64,000 nucleotides of DNA from Candidatus Methylomirabilia bacterium (GCA_041496385.1 JBGQEL010000012.1:11409-75408); one strand, 5' to 3'. Shown: positions 21,111-63,733, counted from the stretch's first letter. A program made the numbers and translations. The notes: generated by a model not told the origin, from the sequence alone.

Positions 21111-22114
21111 TCGCGCTGGTCACGGGCGGCACCGGGTTCGTGGGGGCCAACCTCGTGCGCGAGCTCCTCCGGGACCGGCGCGCCGTGCGCGTCCTCGCGC
21201 GGCCGGGCGGCGATCGGCGCGCGCTGGCCGGGCTCGACGTCGAGATCTGCGAGGGCGACCTGCTCGATCCTGCCTCGCTCCGCCGCGCGGTGCGGGGCGC
21301 GGACACGATCTTCCACGTCGCGGCCGACTACCGCCTGTGGGCGCGCGACCCCGGCGAGATGCACCGCGCGAACGTGGGCGGCACGCGCGCCATCCTCGAG
21401 GCGGCGGCGGAGCACGGCGCGCGGCGCGTGGTCTACACGTCGACGGTCGGCGCCCTCGGCATCCCGAAGGACGGCTCGCCGGGCACGGAGGACACGCCGG
21501 TCTCGCTGCGCGACATGGTCGGCCCGTACAAGACGTCGAAGTTCATCGCCGAGCAGGTGGCGCTGGGCTTCGCGCAGCAGGGTCTGCCGCTGGTGATCGT
21601 GAACCCTTCGGCGCCCGTCGGCCCGTGGGACGTGAAGCCCACGCCGACCGGGCAGATGATCGTGGATTTCCTCAGCGGCCGGATGGTCGCGACGCTCGAC
21701 ACGGGGCTCAACCTGATCCACGTGCGCGACGTCGCGCGCGGGCACATCCTCGCGGCCGAGCGCGGTCGCGTCGGCGAGAAGTACATCCTCGGCCACGCGG
21801 ACCTGTCCCTCGCCGAGATCGGGCTGCTCCTCTCCGAGGTCACCGGGATCCGTCCGCCGCGCCTCCGGGTCCCCTACGCGGTGGCCTGGCTCGCGGCCGC
21901 GTCCATGGAGGCGGCGGCCCGGCTGACGGGCGGCGCGCCCCGGGTGCCGCTGACCGCGGTGCGCATGGCGAAGAAGCGCATGTACTTCAGCGCGGCCCGG
22001 GCGGTGCGCGAGCTGGGGCTGCCGCAGACCGACGTGCGCGAGGCGCTGCGCGACGCGGCGGAGTGGTTTTCGGCGCGCGGCTATGTCAAGCTCCCGGCGA
22101 GGCAGACGGCATGA
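21107..22114 (+). CDS. hpnA: hopanoid-associated NAD-dependent sugar epimerase/dehydratase HpnA
   Basis: From GTG 21107 (VIALVTGGTGFVGANLVREL...); Rossmann GxxGxxG and YxxxK (YKTSK) SDR-extended motifs; GTG overlaps the hpnG stop. Confidence 0.75.
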   Translation: MIALVTGGTGFVGANLVRELLRDRRAVRVLARPGGDRRALAGLDVEICEGDLLDPASLRRAVRGADTIFHVAADYRLWARDPGEMHRANVGGTRAILEAAAEHGARRVVYTSTVGALGIPKDGSPGTEDTPVSLRDMVGPYKTSKFIAEQVALGFAQQGLPLVIVNPSAPVGPWDVKPTPTGQMIVDFLSGRMVATLDTGLNLIHVRDVARGHILAAERGRVGEKYILGHADLSLAEIGLLLSEVTGIRPPRLRVPYAVAWLAAASMEAAARLTGGAPRVPLTAVRMAKKRMYFSAARAVRELGLPQTDVREALRDAAEWFSARGYVKLPARQTA

Positions 22115-41178: not shown

Positions 41179-41670
41179 ATGACGGACGCATTCGACCTCA
41201 CGCGACGGACGCTGCTGGGAACGCTCGGCGTCCTCGGCGTGGCGGCGCTGGCGGGCGGCCTCGCGGCGCCCGAGGGCGCCGGCGCGCAGCAGCTCGGGCT
41301 GCAGGAGACGATCGACGAGGCCCTGAAGCGTGTCTTCGGCGGGCGGCCCATTAAGGACGGCTCGGGCGCGATCAAGCTCGATATCCCGGCGATCGCCGAG
41401 AACGGCGCGCTCGTGCAGACGGGCGTGACCGTCGAGTCGCCGATGACGCCGGCGAACCACGTCAAGCACATCTGGATCGTCGCCGACAAGAACCGGATCC
41501 CCGTCGTGTTCGTCGCGACGCTCACGCCGGAGGCGGGCCGCGCCTCCGTCGGCGCCACGATCCGGCTCGGCGAGACGGGTGACGTTCGCGCCATCGTGGA
41601 GCAGAGCGACGGCACGCTGCTCCAGGTGAAGCGCGAGGTCAAGGTCACCGTCGGCGGCTGCGGAGGCTGA
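41179..41670 (+). CDS. soxY: sulfur carrier protein SoxY
   Basis: 163 aa; Tat signal (TRRTLLGTLG); C-terminal GGCGG swinging-arm motif. Confidence 0.85.
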   Translation: MTDAFDLTRRTLLGTLGVLGVAALAGGLAAPEGAGAQQLGLQETIDEALKRVFGGRPIKDGSGAIKLDIPAIAENGALVQTGVTVESPMTPANHVKHIWIVADKNRIPVVFVATLTPEAGRASVGATIRLGETGDVRAIVEQSDGTLLQVKREVKVTVGGCGG

Positions 41671-41676
41671 GCGCGC

Positions 41677-42009
41677 GTGTCCGACATCGGCAAGGTGCGC
41701 ATCCGGATTCCCTCGAGCATCAAGCCCGGTGACGTCGTCCAGGCGCGCACGCTCGTCATCCACCCCATGGAGCGCGTCGAGCGCGACCGGCAGGGCCGCG
41801 TCATCCAGAAGAACTACAGCTACATCACCCGGGTGGTCGTGACCTACCTCGGCAAGACGGTCGTCACCTTCGACACGACGCAGGGCGTGAGCGAGAACCC
41901 GTTCTTCTCGTTCACGTTCCGCGCGACGGATCCGGGCCAGCTGAAGGTCCAGTTCCTGGACACGACGGGTGGCCGGTACGAGGGCACGACCGACATCACG
42001 TTCTCCTGA
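41677..42009 (+). CDS. soxZ: SoxZ
   Basis: 110 aa immediately after soxY; SoxZ-sized beta-sandwich protein. Confidence 0.8.
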   Translation: MSDIGKVRIRIPSSIKPGDVVQARTLVIHPMERVERDRQGRVIQKNYSYITRVVVTYLGKTVVTFDTTQGVSENPFFSFTFRATDPGQLKVQFLDTTGGRYEGTTDITFS

Positions 42010-42028
42010 CGGAGCGCGCCGGGCGTCC

Positions 42029-43324
42029 ATGCACGCGCCGCGCGCTCTGCCCTCGATCCTGCTGGCCGCGCTCGCTCTCGGCTGCGCCGCCGCCACCGAG
42101 CGTCCCGCCGACGGCGTTCCGGCCTGGACCACGCGCGCGATCCCCGAGGCGCGCGGCGACGTCCGCGTGGCGCCGGATGGCACGCGCGTCGCGATCCGGT
42201 ACCGCGGCTGGACGACGCGCGACTTCGGCGCCTTCCGCACCTACGCCTACGACGACACGCGCCCCGAGCCGCGCGTCGCGCGCGCGGCGGCGCCGTCGGG
42301 CGTGACGGGCGACGCCGCGCGCGGGCGGCGCCTCTTCCTCGACCGCGCGAAGGGCCCGTGCACCGGCTGCCACCTGGTGCCGGGTGACGACGTCTGGCCC
42401 GCCGGCAACGTCGGCCCCGATCTCTCGACGCTCGGCGCTCGCGACCTCGCCGACGCGTACCTCTACCAGCAGCTCTTCGACCCGCGCGTGACCTTCCCGA
42501 AGACCTCGATGCCGCCGTGGGGCGCCGCCGGCGCCTTCACGCCCGCCGAGCTCGCGGACCTCGTCGCGTACCTCCAGACGCTCCGCGGGCCCGTGCCGCC
42601 CGAGCGCGATCGCGACCGCGACCCCGCCACGCGGGGCAAGCCCCCGGGCTTCGGCGACAACCTCGATCCCACGAACAATCCGGCCGTGCTGCTGGCCGAG
42701 GACGCCGAGGCGCGCTGGGCGTCGCCGGGCCCGGCGGGAAAAGCGTGCGCGGGCTGTCACGAGGGAGGGCCCGCGCGGGCGATGAAGGGCGTCGCCACGC
42801 GCTACCCGAGGCACGTCCCGGCGTGGCGCCGCGTGATGAGCCTCGAGGACTTCCTCGAGGTCCACGGCCCCGGGACGACCGGGCGCGCCTACCCGCTCGA
42901 GTCCGCCGAGAACCTCACGATGACGATCCTCGTCAAGATGGCGTCCAACGGCCTGCCGCAGGCACTCGACACGACCAGCCCCGAGGCGCGGGCGGCCATC
43001 CGCCGGGGCCGGGCGACCTTCGAGCGTCGCGTCGGCGAGCGCAACCACGCGTGCGCCGACTGTCACACGCCCGAGCACGGCGCCGGACGGTTTCTCGGCG
43101 GCCGTCTGCTGGCCGACGTGAGCGCGGGGCTCACGCGCCACTTCCCGACGTGGCGCACGAGCCAGGGCGAGGTCTGGGACCTGCGCAAGCGCTTCCAGTG
43201 GTGCATGACGCCGCTCGGGGCGAACATGCTCGCGGCCGACGCGATCGAGTACGCGGAGCTGGAGCTCTACCTGGCGACGTTCGACGTCGGCAAGCCGCTG
43301 AGCGTCCCCGGGATCCGCCACTGA
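42029..43324 (+). CDS. SoxXA-like trihaem cytochrome c (apparent SoxX-SoxA fusion)
   Basis: ORF 41969..43324; signal/lipobox-like start at ATG 42029 (MHAPRALPSILLAALALGCAA). Three CxxCH motifs (CTGCH, CAGCH, CADCH), consistent with a monohaem SoxX-like N-terminal part plus a dihaem SoxA-like part. Confidence 0.6.
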   Translation: MHAPRALPSILLAALALGCAAATERPADGVPAWTTRAIPEARGDVRVAPDGTRVAIRYRGWTTRDFGAFRTYAYDDTRPEPRVARAAAPSGVTGDAARGRRLFLDRAKGPCTGCHLVPGDDVWPAGNVGPDLSTLGARDLADAYLYQQLFDPRVTFPKTSMPPWGAAGAFTPAELADLVAYLQTLRGPVPPERDRDRDPATRGKPPGFGDNLDPTNNPAVLLAEDAEARWASPGPAGKACAGCHEGGPARAMKGVATRYPRHVPAWRRVMSLEDFLEVHGPGTTGRAYPLESAENLTMTILVKMASNGLPQALDTTSPEARAAIRRGRATFERRVGERNHACADCHTPEHGAGRFLGGRLLADVSAGLTRHFPTWRTSQGEVWDLRKRFQWCMTPLGANMLAADAIEYAELELYLATFDVGKPLSVPGIRH

Positions 43325-45003
43325 GCCTCACCCGGCGCGACCTGCTGACGGTCCTGGCCGTCGCGGCGGCGGCGGGGCTCGCGCCGCGCCGGCTCGAGGC
43401 GGCCGACGGTCCCGAACGGCTCCTCGAGGTCGAGCCGCTCGGCAACGTGACGCTGCTCCACCTCACGGATTCGCACGGGACGCTCCGGCCCGTGCACTAC
43501 CGCGAGCCCGACACGCTCGTCGGCGTCGGCGCCGAGCGCGGGAAGGCGCCGTTCCTGACGGGCGCCGAGTTCCTGCGCGCGTATCACCTGGCGCCCGGCT
43601 CCGCCCTCGCCCACGCCTGCACGCATCTCGACTTCCCGGCGCTGGCGGCGCGCTACGGGCGGATGGGCGGCTATGCCCACCTCGCGACGCTCGCCGGCCG
43701 CGTGCGCGCCGAGCGGGCGGGGAAGACGCTGCTCCTCGACGGCGGCGACACCTGCCAGGGCTCGGCGACCGCGCTCTGGAGCCGCGGCGAGGACATGATC
43801 CGCGCCGCGAACCAGCTCGGTGTCGAGGTGATGACGCCGCACTGGGAGTTCGTCTACGGGCTGGACCGGGTGCGCGAGCTCTTCGGCGAGGGCGAGCGGC
43901 GCGGCCTCTTCGCGGGCGACTTCGTCGCGCAGAACGTCACGCGCACGGGCTGGGGTGACCGCGTCTTCGCGCCGTACACGATCCGCGAGGCCGGCGGCGT
44001 GCGCATCGGGGTGATCGGCCAGGCGTTCCCGTACGTCCCGGTGTCGCATCCGCGACGCCTGGTGCCCGACCTGACGTTCGGCATCCAGGAGGGCCCGCTC
44101 CAGGCCCTCGTGGGGGAGGTGCGCGACGCGCGGCGCGTGGAGCTGGTCGTGCTCCTGTCGCACAACGGCATCGCCGTGGACCTGAAGCTCGCCGCCCGCG
44201 TCCAGGGGCTCGACGTCGTGCTGGGCGGCCACACCCACGACGCGCTCCCGGAGCCCATCGTCGTCGGGCGCACGCTCGTCGTGAACTCGGGCTCGCACGG
44301 CAAGTTCCTCTCGCGCCTGGACCTCGACGTGCGCCAGGGCCGCGTCGCGGGCTGGCGCTACCGGCTCCTCCCCGTGCTCGCCCGGTCCATCCCCGAGGAT
44401 CCCGCGATGGCACGGCTCGTCGCCGAGCTGCGCCGGCCGTACGAGGCGACGCTCGCCGAGCCGCTCGCGGTCTCCGAGTCGCTGCTCTACCGCCGCGGCA
44501 ACTTCAACGGCACCTTCGACGAGCTGATCCTCGACGCGCTCCTCCAGCGCTTCGACGCCGAGGTTGCCTTCTCACCGGGGTTCCGCTGGGGCCCGACGAT
44601 CGTGCCCGGGCAGACGATCACGCGCGAGGACGTCTACGCCCACACGGCGCTCACGTACCCGAACACCTGGGCGCGCGCGATGACGGGCCGCGAGATCCTG
44701 GCGCTCATGGAGGACGTCGCCGACAACCTCTACCACCCCGATCCGTACTACCGGCAGGGCGGCGACATGCTGCGCGTCGGCGGCCTCACGTACGCGATCG
44801 ACCCGCAGGCGGCGATGGGCCGGCGGATCCGCGACGTCCGCGTCGGCGGCCGGACGCTCGAGGCGGAGCGGCAATACAAGGCCGCGGGCTGGGCGAGCCT
44901 CGGCGAGGCCGCGGGGCCGCCCGCGTGGGACGTCGTTGCTGCCCACCTGCGGGCGCTCGGGCGCGTCCGGCTCGACCCGCGGCCGCGCGTCCGCGTCCTG
45001 TGA
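43321..45003 (+). CDS. soxB: thiosulfohydrolase SoxB (apparent CTG start overlapping upstream TGA)
   Basis: In-frame part of ORF 42517..45003; Tat signal LSLTRRDLLTVLAVAAAAGLAP; 5'-nucleotidase/metallophosphatase motifs (HLTDSHG, GGHTH). No ATG/GTG/TTG between GTG 43198/43201 and the Tat motif; alternative start GTG 43198. Confidence 0.8.
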   Translation: MSLTRRDLLTVLAVAAAAGLAPRRLEAADGPERLLEVEPLGNVTLLHLTDSHGTLRPVHYREPDTLVGVGAERGKAPFLTGAEFLRAYHLAPGSALAHACTHLDFPALAARYGRMGGYAHLATLAGRVRAERAGKTLLLDGGDTCQGSATALWSRGEDMIRAANQLGVEVMTPHWEFVYGLDRVRELFGEGERRGLFAGDFVAQNVTRTGWGDRVFAPYTIREAGGVRIGVIGQAFPYVPVSHPRRLVPDLTFGIQEGPLQALVGEVRDARRVELVVLLSHNGIAVDLKLAARVQGLDVVLGGHTHDALPEPIVVGRTLVVNSGSHGKFLSRLDLDVRQGRVAGWRYRLLPVLARSIPEDPAMARLVAELRRPYEATLAEPLAVSESLLYRRGNFNGTFDELILDALLQRFDAEVAFSPGFRWGPTIVPGQTITREDVYAHTALTYPNTWARAMTGREILALMEDVADNLYHPDPYYRQGGDMLRVGGLTYAIDPQAAMGRRIRDVRVGGRTLEAERQYKAAGWASLGEAAGPPAWDVVAAHLRALGRVRLDPRPRVRVL

Positions 45004-45079: not shown

Positions 45080-45997
45080 CTAGCCGCGCCGCCCGCGGGG
45101 CGGACCGCCGGCGTCCGAGAGCGCCGCGCGCAGCACGCCGAGCAGGGACCGCGCCTCCGGCGAGAGCGGCCGCTGCCGCGGGTGGATCACGTCGAGGCTC
45201 CGCGCGAGCGGCTCGGCGCCGACGATGTGGATCGCCACGAGCGAGCGCCGCCGGAGCTCCCGGCCGACGGCGAGGTGGGGCAGGAACGCGAAGCCGACCC
45301 CCCGCTCGACCATCTTCTTCGCCGTCTCGATCGTCTCGACCTCCAGCACCACGTTCGGCACGAGCCCCGCCCGGCGGAAGAGACCGTGGGTGAGCGTCCA
45401 GTCACTCGAACCCCGGTCGAAGAAGACGAGCCGCCGCTCGGCCACCTGCTCGAGCCGCGCCCGCCGCTCGCGCGGCGGCCACGAGGCCGGGCGCGCGACC
45501 AGGATGAGCGGATCGTCGCGCAGCGAGAGCGTCTCGACGTCGGGGTGGTGGAGCGAGCGCGCCAGCCCGACCTCCGCCTCGCCGCGCAACACCATCTCGA
45601 GGACCTCCTTCGAGTGGCCCGAGCGCACCGTGATGAGCGTCTTCGGGTGCGCCGTCTGGAAGCGCTTGAGCACGTCGGGCAGCAGGTACGTGCAGATGGA
45701 GAGCACGGCCGCGATCTGGAGCGCGCCGCCCGCGGCCGGCCGGAGGTCGTGGACCGCCTGGCGGGCGAGCGCCACGGCCTGCAGGAGGTGCTCGGCGCGG
45801 GGCTTGAGTACGCGGCCCGCCGCCGAGAGCGCGAAGCCGTGCTTGCCGCGCTCGAAGAGCTTCACGCCGAGCGACGCCTCGAGCGACCGGATCCGCGCGC
45901 TGACGGCGGGCTGGGTGAGGCGCAGCGCTTCGGCCGCGCGGCGGAAGCCGCCGAAGGTGCCGACGGCGAGGAACGCCTCGACCTGCGGGATCTCCAT
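45080..45997 (-). CDS. LysR family transcriptional regulator
   Basis: 305 aa; N-terminal wHTH (FRRAAEALRLTQPAVSARIRSLE) plus LysR substrate-binding domain. Confidence 0.85.
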   Translation of the reverse strand: MEIPQVEAFLAVGTFGGFRRAAEALRLTQPAVSARIRSLEASLGVKLFERGKHGFALSAAGRVLKPRAEHLLQAVALARQAVHDLRPAAGGALQIAAVLSICTYLLPDVLKRFQTAHPKTLITVRSGHSKEVLEMVLRGEAEVGLARSLHHPDVETLSLRDDPLILVARPASWPPRERRARLEQVAERRLVFFDRGSSDWTLTHGLFRRAGLVPNVVLEVETIETAKKMVERGVGFAFLPHLAVGRELRRRSLVAIHIVGAEPLARSLDVIHPRQRPLSPEARSLLGVLRAALSDAGGPPRGRRG

Positions 45998-59146: not shown

Positions 59147-60946
59147 ATGGCCGCCGCCGACTACGAAACACACGAGCACGACGTCCTCGTCATCGGCGCC
59201 GGGGGCGCGGGCCTGCGCGCGGCCATCGAGGCCGCGGCGCAGGGCGTCTCGGTCGGCCTCGTCTGCAAATCGCTCCTCGGCAAGGCGCACACGGTCATGG
59301 CCGAGGGGGGCATCGCGGCCGCGCTCGGCAACGTGTGGCCCGAGGACAACTGGCAGGTGCACTTCCGCGACACGATGCGCGGCGGCAAGATGCTGAACAA
59401 CTGGCGCATGGCGCAGCTGCACGCGCAGGAGGCGCCCGAGCGCGTCCTCGAGCTGGAGCGCTGGGGCGCGCTCTTCGACCGCACCAAGGACGGCCGGATC
59501 CTCCAGCGCGATTTCGGCGGCCACCGCTACGCACGGCTCGCGCACGTCGGCGACCGGACCGGCCTCGAGATGATCCGAACGCTCCAGTACCACGGCATCC
59601 ACCAGGGCATCGACGTCTACATGGAGTGCAAGGTCGAGCGCCTCCTGAAGGACGGCAACCGCGTGTGCGGCGCGTTCGGCTACTGGCGCGAGACCGGCAA
59701 GTTCGTCGTCTTCAAGGCGAAGGCGATCGTGATCGCGACGGGTGGCATCGGCAAGGCGTGGAAGATCACGTCGAACTCCTGGGAGTATACCGGCGACGGC
59801 CAGTCGCTGGCGCTCTGGGCGGGTGCGGACCTGATCGACATGGAGTTCGTCCAGTTCCACCCGACGGGCATGATCTGGCCGCCCTCGGTGCGCGGCATCC
59901 TCGTGACCGAGGGCGTGCGCGGAGACGGCGGGACCCTCAAGAACAACAAGGGCGAGCGGTTCATGTTCAACTACATCCCCGAGTTCTTCAAGAGCGAGAC
60001 GGCCGACAACGAGGCCGAGGCCGACCGCTGGTACGAGGACAAGAATAACCGCCGCACGCCGGACCTCCTGCCGCGCGACGAGGTCGCCCGCGCGATCGAC
60101 AGCGAGGTGAAGGCCGGCCGCGGGACGCCGCACGGCGGCGTCTTCCTCGACATCTGCACGCGGCGGCCCGCCGACTACATCAAGAAGCGCCTGCCCTCCA
60201 TGTACCACCAGTTCAAGGAGCTGGCGGACGTGGACATCACCAGGGAGCCGATGGAGGTCGGGCCGACCTGCCACTACGTCATGGGCGGCGTCCGGGTCGA
60301 CGCCGACAGCGCCGCGGCGAACGTGTCCGGCCTCTTCGCGGCCGGCGAGGCGGCGGGCGGCATGCACGGCGCCAACCGCCTCGGGGGCAACTCGCTCTCC
60401 GACCTGCTCGTCTTCGGCCGGCGGGCGGGCCTGCACGCGGCGCTCTACGCGAAGAACAGCGGCGGCCAGCTCGTCGTGGACGCGGGCCAGGTCGAGGCCA
60501 TCGCGCGCGACGTGATCGCCCCGTTCAACCGCGCGCAGGGCGAGAACCCGTACGCGATCCAGGCCGACCTCCAGGCCACGATGCAAGCGCTGGTCGGCAT
60601 CATCCGGACCGAGAGCGAGATGCAGGAGGCCCTGCGGAAGATCGAGCAGCTGAAGGCTCGGGCCGAGCGCGTCGGCGTGGACGGCAACCGCCAGTACAAT
60701 CCCGGCTGGCACACCGCCCTGGATCTGAAATCGCTCCTGACGGTCGCCGAATGCTGCGCCCTGGCCGCGCTCGAGCGCCGGGAGAGCCGCGGCGGCCACA
60801 CCCGCGACGATCATCCCTACACCGACGACCAGTGGGGCAAGGTCAACATCGTGCTGCGCCAGCGCGACGGCGCCGTCCGGCTGACCCGCGAGCCGCTGCC
60901 GGAGATGCCCGCGGAGCTGAAGTCGCTCTTCCAGGAGAGAAAGTGA
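59147..60946 (+). CDS. sdhA: succinate dehydrogenase flavoprotein subunit
   Basis: 599 aa; FAD-binding VLVIGAGGAGLRAA, the covalent-FAD His region, HYVMGG. Confidence 0.9.
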   Translation: MAAADYETHEHDVLVIGAGGAGLRAAIEAAAQGVSVGLVCKSLLGKAHTVMAEGGIAAALGNVWPEDNWQVHFRDTMRGGKMLNNWRMAQLHAQEAPERVLELERWGALFDRTKDGRILQRDFGGHRYARLAHVGDRTGLEMIRTLQYHGIHQGIDVYMECKVERLLKDGNRVCGAFGYWRETGKFVVFKAKAIVIATGGIGKAWKITSNSWEYTGDGQSLALWAGADLIDMEFVQFHPTGMIWPPSVRGILVTEGVRGDGGTLKNNKGERFMFNYIPEFFKSETADNEAEADRWYEDKNNRRTPDLLPRDEVARAIDSEVKAGRGTPHGGVFLDICTRRPADYIKKRLPSMYHQFKELADVDITREPMEVGPTCHYVMGGVRVDADSAAANVSGLFAAGEAAGGMHGANRLGGNSLSDLLVFGRRAGLHAALYAKNSGGQLVVDAGQVEAIARDVIAPFNRAQGENPYAIQADLQATMQALVGIIRTESEMQEALRKIEQLKARAERVGVDGNRQYNPGWHTALDLKSLLTVAECCALAALERRESRGGHTRDDHPYTDDQWGKVNIVLRQRDGAVRLTREPLPEMPAELKSLFQERK

Positions 60947-61701: not shown

Positions 61702-62864
61702 AGATCCACGAGTTCCAGGCCAAGGCGCTGCTGCGCGAGTTCGGCGTGCCGGTGCCCGCCGGCGACGTCGCGACCTCGCCGGCCGCCGCGCGGGCCGTCG
61801 CGGCCCGGCTTGGCGGGAAGGTGGTCGTGAAGGCCCAGGTGCACGCCGGGGGCCGCGGCAAGGCGGGCGGCATCAAGCTCGCCGACGATCCAGCCGCCGC
61901 CGAGGCGGCGGCCGCGGCCATCATCGGCATGCGGCTCAAGACGCCGCAGACGCCCCCCGAGGGCATCCAGGTGCGCTCGGTGCTCGTCGAGGAAGCCTCG
62001 CTGGTCGAGCGCGAGCTCTATCTCTCGATCGCGCTCGACCGCGGCCGGAGCGCGCACGTGGTGATGGCCTCGCAGGCGGGCGGCATGGAGATCGAGGAGG
62101 TCGCCGCGCGCACCCCGGAGAAGATCCTCCGCGAGTGGGCCCACCCGGCGCTCGGCCTCGCCGACTTCCAGGCGCGGCGGCTGGCGTTCGGGCTCGGGCT
62201 CGCCGCCGAGGCGTTCAAGCAGGGCGTGAGCCTGATCCGGAGCCTCTTCGCGCTCTACCTCGCCAGGGACTGCTCCCTCGCCGAGATCAACCCGCTCGTC
62301 GTCACGCGTGACGGCCGCGTGCTGGCGCTCGACGCCAAGCTCAACTTCGACGACAGCGCGCTCTCCCGGCACAAGGAGATCGCCGCCCTGCGCGACATCC
62401 ACGAGGAGGACCCGCTCGACGTCGAGGCGTCGAAGTACGGCCTGAACTACATCAAGCTCGACGGCAACGTGGGCTGCATGGTCAACGGCGCCGGCCTCGC
62501 GATGGCGACGATGGACATCGTGAAGCTCGCGGGCGGCGAGCCGGCCAACTTCCTCGACGTGGGTGGCGGCGCCTCGCCCGAGCAGATCGAGAACGCCTTC
62601 CGCATCCTCGCGTCGGACCCGTCGGTGAAGGCCGTCTTCATCAACGTCTTCGGCGGGATCCTTCGCGTGGACCGGCTGGCCGAGGGGATCATCGGCGCGG
62701 TGAAGAAGCTCGGGCTGCGGCTGCCGGTGGTGCTGCGCGCCGAGGGCACGAACGTGGAGATCGGCAAGAAGATGCTCGCCGAGTCCGGCCTCCCGCTCGT
62801 GATGGCCGACGACATGGCCGACGGCGCGCGCAAGGTCGTGGCGCTCGCGAAGGGGGCCCCCTGA
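61698..62864 (+). CDS. sucC: succinyl-CoA synthetase beta subunit
   Basis: From GTG 61698 ([20 protein letters not shown]...), overlapping the sdhB stop (GTGA). ATP-grasp and CoA-ligase domains. Confidence 0.9.
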
Positions 62865-63733
62865 GCGTCCTCGTCTCGCGGGCCACGCGCGTCGTCGTCC
62901 AGGGCATCACGGGACGCGAGGGGGCGTTTCACGCCGCCCGCTGCAAGGAGTACGGCACCACGGTCGTGGGCGGCGTGACGCCGGGGAAGGGCGGCACGAC
63001 CCACGAGGGATTCCCCGTGTGGAACACCGTGGCCGACGCGGTGGCGAGCGAGCGGGCGAACTGCGCGCTCATCTTCGTCCCGCCGGCCGCCGCGGCCGAC
63101 GCGATCATGGAAGCCGCGGCCGCCGGCGTGCCCCTCGTGGTCTGCATCACGGAGGGGATTCCCGTCGCGGACATGGTGCGCACGAAGCACTATCTCGCGA
63201 CGCAGCCGACGCGGCTGATCGGGCCGAACTGCCCGGGCGTGATCACGCCGGATGAGGCGAAGGTCGGCATCATGCCCGGCCACATCCACAAGCGCGGGCC
63301 CGTCGGCGTCGTCTCGCGCAGCGGCACGCTGACCTACGAGGTCGTGGGCCAGCTCACCGGCCGTGGCATCGGCCAGTCCTCGTGCGTGGGGATCGGGGGC
63401 GACCCCGTGAACGGCACCAGCTTCGTGAACGTGCTCGGGCTCTTCGCCGACGATCCCGAGACGCGGGCGATCATGATGATCGGCGAGATCGGCGGCACCG
63501 CCGAGGAGGAAGCCGCGGTGTTCATCCGCAACCACGTCAAGAAACCGGTGATCGCGTTCATCTGCGGCCAGACGGCGCCGCCCGGCCGCCGCATGGGTCA
63601 CGCGGGCGCCATCATCGCGGGGGGGAAGGGGACGGCCGCCGAGAAGATGGCGGCGCTGGAGGCCGCCGGGGCCACCCTCGTCCGCAGCCCGGCCGACATG
63701 GGCGCGACCGTCGCCGCGGTCTTGCAGAGGTGA
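62861..63733 (+). CDS. sucD: succinyl-CoA synthetase alpha subunit (apparent CTG initiation codon overlapping sucC stop)
   Basis: Conserved N-terminus [45 protein letters not shown] aligns residue-for-residue with [21 protein letters not shown]...[10 protein letters not shown] of SucD. There is an in-frame TGA at 62801 and no ATG/GTG/TTG between it and CTG 62861; the track ORF began only at internal M 62966. Confidence 0.85.

Follow-up and report, generated by a model that had tools for sequence, protein, structure and literature searches.

We report that soxB, in a 64,000-nucleotide (nt) stretch of DNA from a Candidatus Methylomirabilia bacterium (GCA_041496385.1 JBGQEL010000012.1:11409-75408), probably begins at a CTG codon. 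This stretch, hereafter the window (G+C content 71.6%; positions counted from its first letter), has its closest relatives among metagenome-assembled genomes (MAGs) of Candidatus Rokuibacteriota / Methylomirabilota. It belongs to a soil population, which is present in the JGI soil samples 3300053056 and 3300052992. The CTG, at 43321, overlaps the stop codon of the gene upstream, a fused soxXA cytochrome gene, as CTGA. Reading the sequence and its relatives together, we put the probability that this codon is the soxB start, with initiation on CTG itself, at about 0.7. A second gene in the window, sucD, meets its upstream neighbour sucC in the same geometry. The features at the soxXA/soxB junction are:

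42029–43324, + strand: fused soxXA cytochrome gene, with an ATG start at 42029 and the end ...VPGIRH-stop, written CAC TGA
43310–43313, + strand: weak Shine–Dalgarno-like GGGA, 7 nt upstream of CTG 43321 (−4.1 kcal/mol)
43321–43324, + strand: CTGA overlap of the proposed soxB start (CTG) with the soxXA stop (TGA, 43322–43324)
43321–45003, + strand: soxB as proposed, 560 amino acids plus stop (TIGR04486; 84% identity to the relative L001)
43321–43401, + strand: predicted twin-arginine translocation (Tat) signal peptide, (M)SLTRRDLLTVLAVAAAAGLAPRRLEA, with cleavage predicted after LEA

From 43321, the soxB frame reads CTG AGC CTC ACC CGG CGC GAC CTG CTG (L-S-L-T-R-R-D-L-L), which places the CTG four codons before the twin arginines. 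The canonical starts nearest to the junction in this frame are three upstream GTGs, at 43150, 43198 and 43201, and one downstream, at 43447; between 43201 and 43447 the frame contains no ATG, GTG or TTG. A preliminary description of this DNA had noted that no canonical start stands between GTG 43198/43201 and the Tat motif and had proposed the CTG as the codon homologous to Met1, overlapping the soxXA stop; rereading the sequence bears out the former, and the sequence together with the relatives supports the latter. Also correct is its statement that the window makes use of ATGA and GTGA overlaps throughout: we count five ATGA junctions (stops ending at 22114, 22998, 58355, (−)16325 and (−)8478) and two or three GTGA junctions (49099 and 61701, with GTGATG at 60946). 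Codons ATG, GTG and TTG can arise in the soxB frame only before a Cys or Trp codon of soxXA, so a run of 40 start-free upstream codons is unsurprising. The real anomaly is the missing start at the junction itself.

The protein encoded from 43321 is complete by homology. It matches TIGR04486 at 777 bits (cutoff 550) over profile positions 1–553 of 556, with profile position 1 falling on residue 4 counted from the CTG, and it aligns to Thermus SoxB (PDB 2wdc; 7.8e-125), the mature domain aligning from AADGPERLL onward. Its N terminus runs from T-R-R-D-L-L through a hydrophobic stretch, TVLAVAAAAGLA, to LEA, a succession that fits the pattern S/T-R-R-x-F/L-L followed by an A-x-A-like site. Among the 120 best homologue clusters, 116 carry the RR motif and the remaining four are truncated gene calls. 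The number of residues ahead of RR is four from CTG 43321, as compared with one to six in the homologues (13 in one gene call) and 45 from GTG 43198. G+C content at third codon positions (GC3) in the soxB frame is 0.95 for 43321–43446 and 0.42 in the 40 codons upstream, where the periodicity of soxXA shows, which supports soxB-frame periodicity beginning at 43321. The mature SoxB N terminus is uninformative about the start, because the Tat signal peptide is cleaved after export.

To place the junction among its relatives, we compared soxB loci from genome assemblies (80) and from metagenomes (at least 24), reading the DNA before the twin-arginine motif in each. Most relatives begin M-[D/E/Q]-V-[S/T]-R-R, with an ATG or GTG four codons before RR, the same distance as that of the CTG in the window; the alignment of SoxB N termini that the preliminary description had called for thus puts the orthologue starts at the position of CTG 43321. 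Seven loci (L001, L103, L007, L108, L008, L022 and L109) have TTGA (caT TGA) at the same nucleotide, with the same IRH-stop end of SoxXA, and five others (L080, L107, L106, L105 and L118) share CTGA (caC TGA) with the window. The closest relative outside the species, L001, whose SoxB is 84% identical, has a TTGA junction. Scanning the metagenomes with the SoxB N terminus, which yielded the at least 24 loci, added one more TTGA junction (L103) and, among the matches listed, no new CTGA.

The base at which these junctions differ is the third position of the terminal His codon of SoxXA, which is CAT in the closest relatives and CAC in the window. Since this His is conserved, only T (a TTG start) or C (a CTG start) is possible there, and the T/C difference is synonymous in SoxXA while changing TTG to CTG in soxB. 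The A-to-C change at 43321 considered in the preliminary description does not fit this constraint, as an ATG would need Gln in place of the conserved His; the likely history is T to C. His codons in the window are CAC in 94.5% of cases and CAT in 5.5%, yet T is kept in five of nine YTGA lineages (binomial p ~6e-5). Such retention, far above the expectation from codon usage, indicates that the base is held as part of a start codon, that is, by selection for TTG.

CTGA junctions that lack an alternative start occur also in L080 (LTADITRRD...) and L107 (LNVTRRD...). In both, no canonical start is present for about 40 codons upstream or for 19 to 59 codons downstream, and none stands before the twin arginines. 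The soxB open reading frame (ORF) of L107 is full length, and its truncated gene call (P0095) is a real CTGA case. Two further leads from gene calls, L108:1971-2003 (P0112) and L112:80-96 (P0178), were rejected as CTGA junctions: they are ordinary TTG starts missed by gene callers, which chose a GTG further in. L108 has the TTGA overlap and its called GTG falls after the RR motif, and the truncations in L108 and L112 are independent of the CTG question. A bootstrapped neighbour-joining tree groups the window with L105, L001 and L106 (94%), and the CTG-only lineages are monophyletic in 0 of 200 replicates. TTGA and CTGA lineages are thus interleaved, which implies three or more changes of the T/C state.

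Within the species, two assemblies made independently, L105 (a JGI contig; 13 differences in 6516 nt) and L118 (an NCBI MAG contig; 16 differences in 4557 nt), are 99.6–99.8% identical to the window and have the same CTGA. No within-species difference falls on the soxXA/soxB junction, and the same C in independent assemblies makes a sequencing error unlikely. Differences within the species comprise three nonsynonymous and four synonymous sites in soxB, similar to four and six in soxXA; both of the soxB sites at which the window and L105 differ are nonsynonymous. The ratio of nonsynonymous to synonymous substitution rates (dN/dS) for soxB is 0.23–0.31 between the window and its relatives and 0.12–0.19 between pairs of TTG lineages, and is 0.15 for the first 40 codons after RR in the comparison with L001. 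The gene thus looks maintained, under purifying selection.

The sucC/sucD junction provides a second CTGA case in the same genome:

61698–62864, + strand: sucC, which starts in a GTGA overlap with the preceding gene and ends ...LAKGAP-stop, written GCC CCC TGA
62850–62856, + strand: Shine–Dalgarno sequence AAGGGGG, 4 nt upstream of CTG 62861 (−10.8 kcal/mol), conserved in relatives as AAGGRRG
62861–62864, + strand: second CTGA overlap, here of the proposed sucD start (CTG) with the sucC stop (TGA)
62861–63733, + strand: sucD as proposed, 290 amino acids plus stop

The sucC copy on a JGI contig (L110) carries the Pfam domains ATP-grasp_2 and Ligase_CoA. Counted from CTG 62861, SucD residue 2 aligns with residue 1 of the mature Escherichia coli SucD (chain 1jkj_A; E = 1.9e-111), and the CTG itself aligns to Met1 of the E. 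coli protein. The sucD frame contains no ATG, GTG or TTG from its opening at 62312 to GTG 62966, which lies 35 codons into the protein, and a start at that GTG would remove the GxTGxxG motif. Relatives that are 85–92% identical have [M/V/L]SVLV at the same position of SucD; their junctions are ATGA in L113 and L114 and GTGA in L115 and L116, and L117 starts sucD with TTG at the homologous position, although the called end of its sucC lies upstream. The same CTGA at sucD is present in two JGI contigs, L110 and L111, which come from different samples and differ from the window at eight and two positions, and the three sites at which sucD varies within the species are all synonymous. Under the canonical anti-Shine–Dalgarno sequence assumed for all 20 start sites that we scored, fewer than 5% of background positions reach −8 kcal/mol or lower, and the sucD site, at −10.8 kcal/mol, is a clear match.

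Either the organism initiates at CTG 62861 or it lacks full-length SucD from this locus, and this absence of any upstream alternative makes use of the CTG at the soxB junction much more credible. A formal alternative, which applies to sucD only, is a −1 frameshift at the sucC stop that would yield a SucC–SucD fusion. The end of sucC is a G5C5 run (GGGGGCCCCC; 62856–62864) on which tRNA-Pro could slip back by one base to pair with C-CCC, after which the next codon would be CTG in the sucD frame. A sixth C would fuse the two frames outright, but three assemblies agree on five. Scanning all the DNA that we had fetched (~640 kb of high-GC sequence) for CTGA gave 20 junctions between coding stretches, most of them followed within a few codons by an ATG or GTG and hence chance occurrences. 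Apart from L040:7273, where CTGA lies between coding-like stretches and no canonical start follows for 23 codons (LTGPGRRAGAPK...), only the junctions of soxB and sucD lack an alternative start.

How translation might begin at the soxB junction can be outlined from the geometry of the overlap. The initiator tRNA would read CTG 43321 as formyl-Met, giving a Tat signal peptide of ordinary short length, (M)SLTRRDLL..., on a SoxB bound for the periplasm. Initiation would most likely be by translational coupling, in that a ribosome terminating soxXA at TGA 43322–43324 would restart one nucleotide back, on the CTG, with the weak GGGA element helping at most. A GGG glycine codon just upstream of the junction (as GGGA or GGGT) is present in four of four CTGA lineages and in two of five TTGA lineages; it is at the same position in L080, L107, L106, L022 and L008, besides the window (43307–43313). 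The enrichment of GGG in CTGA lineages is suggestive only of a Shine–Dalgarno-like element, as the numbers are too small for a test. On this model, relatives keep the rare CAT and with it a TTG start, the window lineage has the preferred CAC and with it a CTG start, and pressure towards GC at the final codon of one gene would erode the start of the next. SoxB output from CTG is probably lower than from TTG, unless the lineage discriminates less among start codons.

Several observations weigh against initiation at CTG 43321. Its Shine–Dalgarno pairing, −4.1 kcal/mol, is barely above the background mean of −3.4 kcal/mol, whereas ordinary genes in the window mostly pair at −5.7 to −9.5 kcal/mol. 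In E. coli, CUG initiates at only 0.02–3% of the level of AUG (bioRxiv 10.1101/063800), and changing the start to AUA in an AUGA coupling reporter abolished downstream expression (PMC9955659), which indicates that, in that system, restart continues to depend on a good start codon. One CTGA relative, L106 (Logan ERR12076164, 88-110), has an in-frame GTG four codons downstream that is called as the start (CTG ACG GCC GGC GTG CTG ACG CGG CGC); this GTG may have arisen to compensate for a lost TTG, with CTG alone being suboptimal. A three-taxon split assigns an omega of ~0.29 to the branch of the window and ~0.15 to that of L001. Finally, the CTG-only lineages are known only at species depth, so the T-to-C change could be recent, and selection averaged over a long branch could be compatible with a recent loss of expression.

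The last of these points leads to one of the rival explanations, in which the T-to-C change destroyed the start and left soxB with little or no expression, as a recent start-loss pseudogene that has yet to gather other damage. The weakness of CUG as an initiator in E. coli (10.1101/063800), the weak Shine–Dalgarno match and the longer branch of the window with its higher omega (~0.29 as compared with ~0.15 for L001) all fit such a loss, and some Rokubacteria MAGs have two soxB copies (L024 and L062 are both from MAG JACQWC01). Against it, the ORF is intact, as are the Tat motif and the hydrophobic region, dN/dS falls well short of 1, and the within-species differences in soxB (3/4) resemble those in soxXA (4/6). 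The CTGA state also arose independently in L080 and L107, the latter with its full-length ORF, and the sucD of the same genome has a CTGA start with only synonymous differences within the species. We consider start loss unlikely. About equally unlikely is a start within soxXA, at a GTG–GTG pair that offers the nearest canonical codons:

43198–43203, + strand: GTG–GTG pair, the rival start, read in the soxXA frame as caG TGG TGc (Q-W-C of SoxA)

Initiation at 43198 or 43201 would add a 41–42-residue Arg-rich extension and create a 124–127-nt out-of-frame overlap. The preliminary description had given the distance correctly as 41 codons, and had put the overlap at 125 nt, which is 127 nt when counted from GTG 43198. 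The frame is open from 42388/42517, and a GTG–GTG pair is present at −40/−41 codons in the CTGA lineages L080 and L107 as well. The same pair and the same open frame are found equally in relatives that start at TTG (L103, L007, L108, L022 and L109); the pair encodes Q-W-C of SoxA there too, so its presence is no sign of use. Likewise, the first codon position of the soxB frame is the GC-rich third position of soxXA, which leaves almost no stops and keeps the frame open. The pair has no Shine–Dalgarno match (+0.1 kcal/mol, the worst of the scored sites), the extension has a GC3 of 0.42 and the periodicity of soxXA only, the 45 residues ahead of RR compare with one to six in homologues (13 in one call), and no public pipeline chose either codon. 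Moreover, sucD in the same genome has no upstream option, so use of CTG is required there regardless.

The start adopted by the public annotations fares far worse:

43447–43449, + strand: GTG start in public calls, giving a 518-amino-acid SoxB without a signal peptide (P0001 from JGI; P0241 and P0242 from NCBI)

This GTG is the first canonical start clear of soxXA, and JGI and NCBI submitters chose it. The product would be cytoplasmic, whereas the Sox system is periplasmic, and the twin-arginine signal, found in 116 of the 120 clusters listed, would be deleted. The 42 codons upstream of it keep the frame, with a GC3 of 0.95 and a dN/dS of 0.15–0.35, and its Shine–Dalgarno pairing is −2.7 kcal/mol. 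We regard a start at GTG 43447 as very improbable. An error at 43321 that masks a canonical start is less credible still, to the point of being negligible: although one base change would restore TTG, three assemblies from different samples and projects differ elsewhere yet all have C at this position, no single-nucleotide polymorphism within the species falls on the junction, and all three gene calls are in the 518-amino-acid form. We also rejected a −1 frameshift fusing SoxXA to SoxB. When re-paired at −1, CAC would read CCA, with which tRNA-His cannot pair, and the fusion would join a Sec-exported cytochrome c to a Tat substrate, which is topologically senseless.

Initiation at CTG 43321 therefore remains our preferred explanation, and its consequences for annotation extend to both genes. 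An exact-sequence look-up found soxB called from GTG 43447 in the JGI assembly and in two NCBI assemblies, all three calls in the cluster being 518 amino acids long, and sucD called as 255 amino acids from GTG 62966 on at least six contigs; the same look-up found no CTG-start version of soxB or sucD in the collection and no version of soxB from GTG 43198. These public calls are probably wrong at the 5′ end of both genes, so that SoxB loses its export signal and SucD its CoA-binding GxTGxxG motif, and predictions of localization and function made from the truncated proteins would mislead.

In the 64-kb window, the proposed CTG starts account for 2 of ~55 genes and for 2 of ~10 four-nt overlaps. 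A wider reading is possible but the less probable outcome: for ribosomes restarting at 4-nt overlaps in this Rokubacteria lineage, and perhaps in other high-GC bacteria, discrimination among NTG codons may be weak. If so, GC pressure would repeatedly turn TTGA and GTGA into CTGA without killing the downstream gene, and CTG starts would form a systematic class truncated by every gene caller. If CTG is truly used at overlaps, annotation-based surveys of overlapping pairs would undercount them, especially in GC-rich genomes. The junctions offer a natural experiment on how much the identity of the start codon matters when translation is coupled. Despite selection for TTG, CTG is found in at least three separate lineages with soxB intact.

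The soxB gene closes a soxY-Z-XA-B cluster that is contiguous on the + strand (41179–45003), of which two genes precede soxXA:

41179–41670, + strand: soxY, the first gene of the soxYZ-XA-B cluster (TIGR04488, 125.6 bits, and PF13501; the same gene call on the JGI contig L105)
41677–42009, + strand: soxZ (TIGR04490 and PF08770)

The soxXA ORF is open from GTG 41969, with the SoxX model covering ORF residues 128–205 and the SoxA model residues 238–450, and JGI calls its product as 431 amino acids. A fused soxXA ending ...PGIRH-stop is seen throughout the related Rokubacteria loci. A promoter and terminator scan found no promoter-like site and no + strand terminator-like site between soxXA and soxB, and folding of the junction RNA gave no unusual structure (z = −0.56). 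A tRNA scan found no tRNA genes in the window. Directly downstream of soxB and convergent to it, at 45080–45997 on the − strand, lies a gene for a LysR-type regulator (HTH_1 and LysR_substrate on the JGI call).

Both CTG starts and stop–start coupling are already documented, and soxB and sucD are further cases. Bacterial CTG starts have been described for RepA of an E. coli plasmid and for rpsL and Deide_03051 in Deinococcus (Baudet et al., PMC2830850). As in those cases, the window genes have a conserved N terminus that can be encoded only with a CTG start, that is seen by aligning orthologues and that gene callers miss. Deinococcus RpsL has peptide evidence and a CTG conserved across its phylum; in contrast, the CTG starts of soxB and sucD, which are proposed here from sequence, are lineage-specific and alternate with TTG (soxB) or with ATG, GTG and TTG (sucD), and always lie in a 4-nt overlap with the upstream stop. 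Bacteria and archaea are both known to use termination–reinitiation at −4 nt overlaps of the ATGA type (Huber et al., PMC6728339; PMC10666635). The window junctions have the identical NTGA geometry and join co-directional genes of one pathway or complex (SoxXA/SoxB and SucC/SucD), but have CTG where the described motifs use canonical starts. Surveys of −4 overlaps rely on annotation, and CTGA junctions would therefore go uncounted. In E. coli, CUG is among the few near-cognate codons, with AUA, AUC and AUU, that initiate detectably (Hecht et al., bioRxiv 10.1101/063800); the efficiencies measured there (0.02–3% of AUG) come from a context uncoupled to an upstream gene, whereas the CTGs of the window overlap an upstream stop. 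A non-canonical AUU or AUA start on infC, which encodes IF3, is autoregulatory (summarised in PMC2830850). The likeness to infC lies in selection maintaining a non-canonical start on a conserved gene. The infC start, however, shows deep conservation and its regulatory logic is understood, whereas the CTG state has a patchy distribution among lineages and seems to be tolerated, not favoured, by selection. The sucC/sucD junction has a counterpart in E. coli itself, where the abutting genes for the beta and alpha subunits of succinyl-CoA synthetase have overlapping and coupled stop and start codons. There, the downstream gene starts at ATG, whereas in the window the overlap has CTG.

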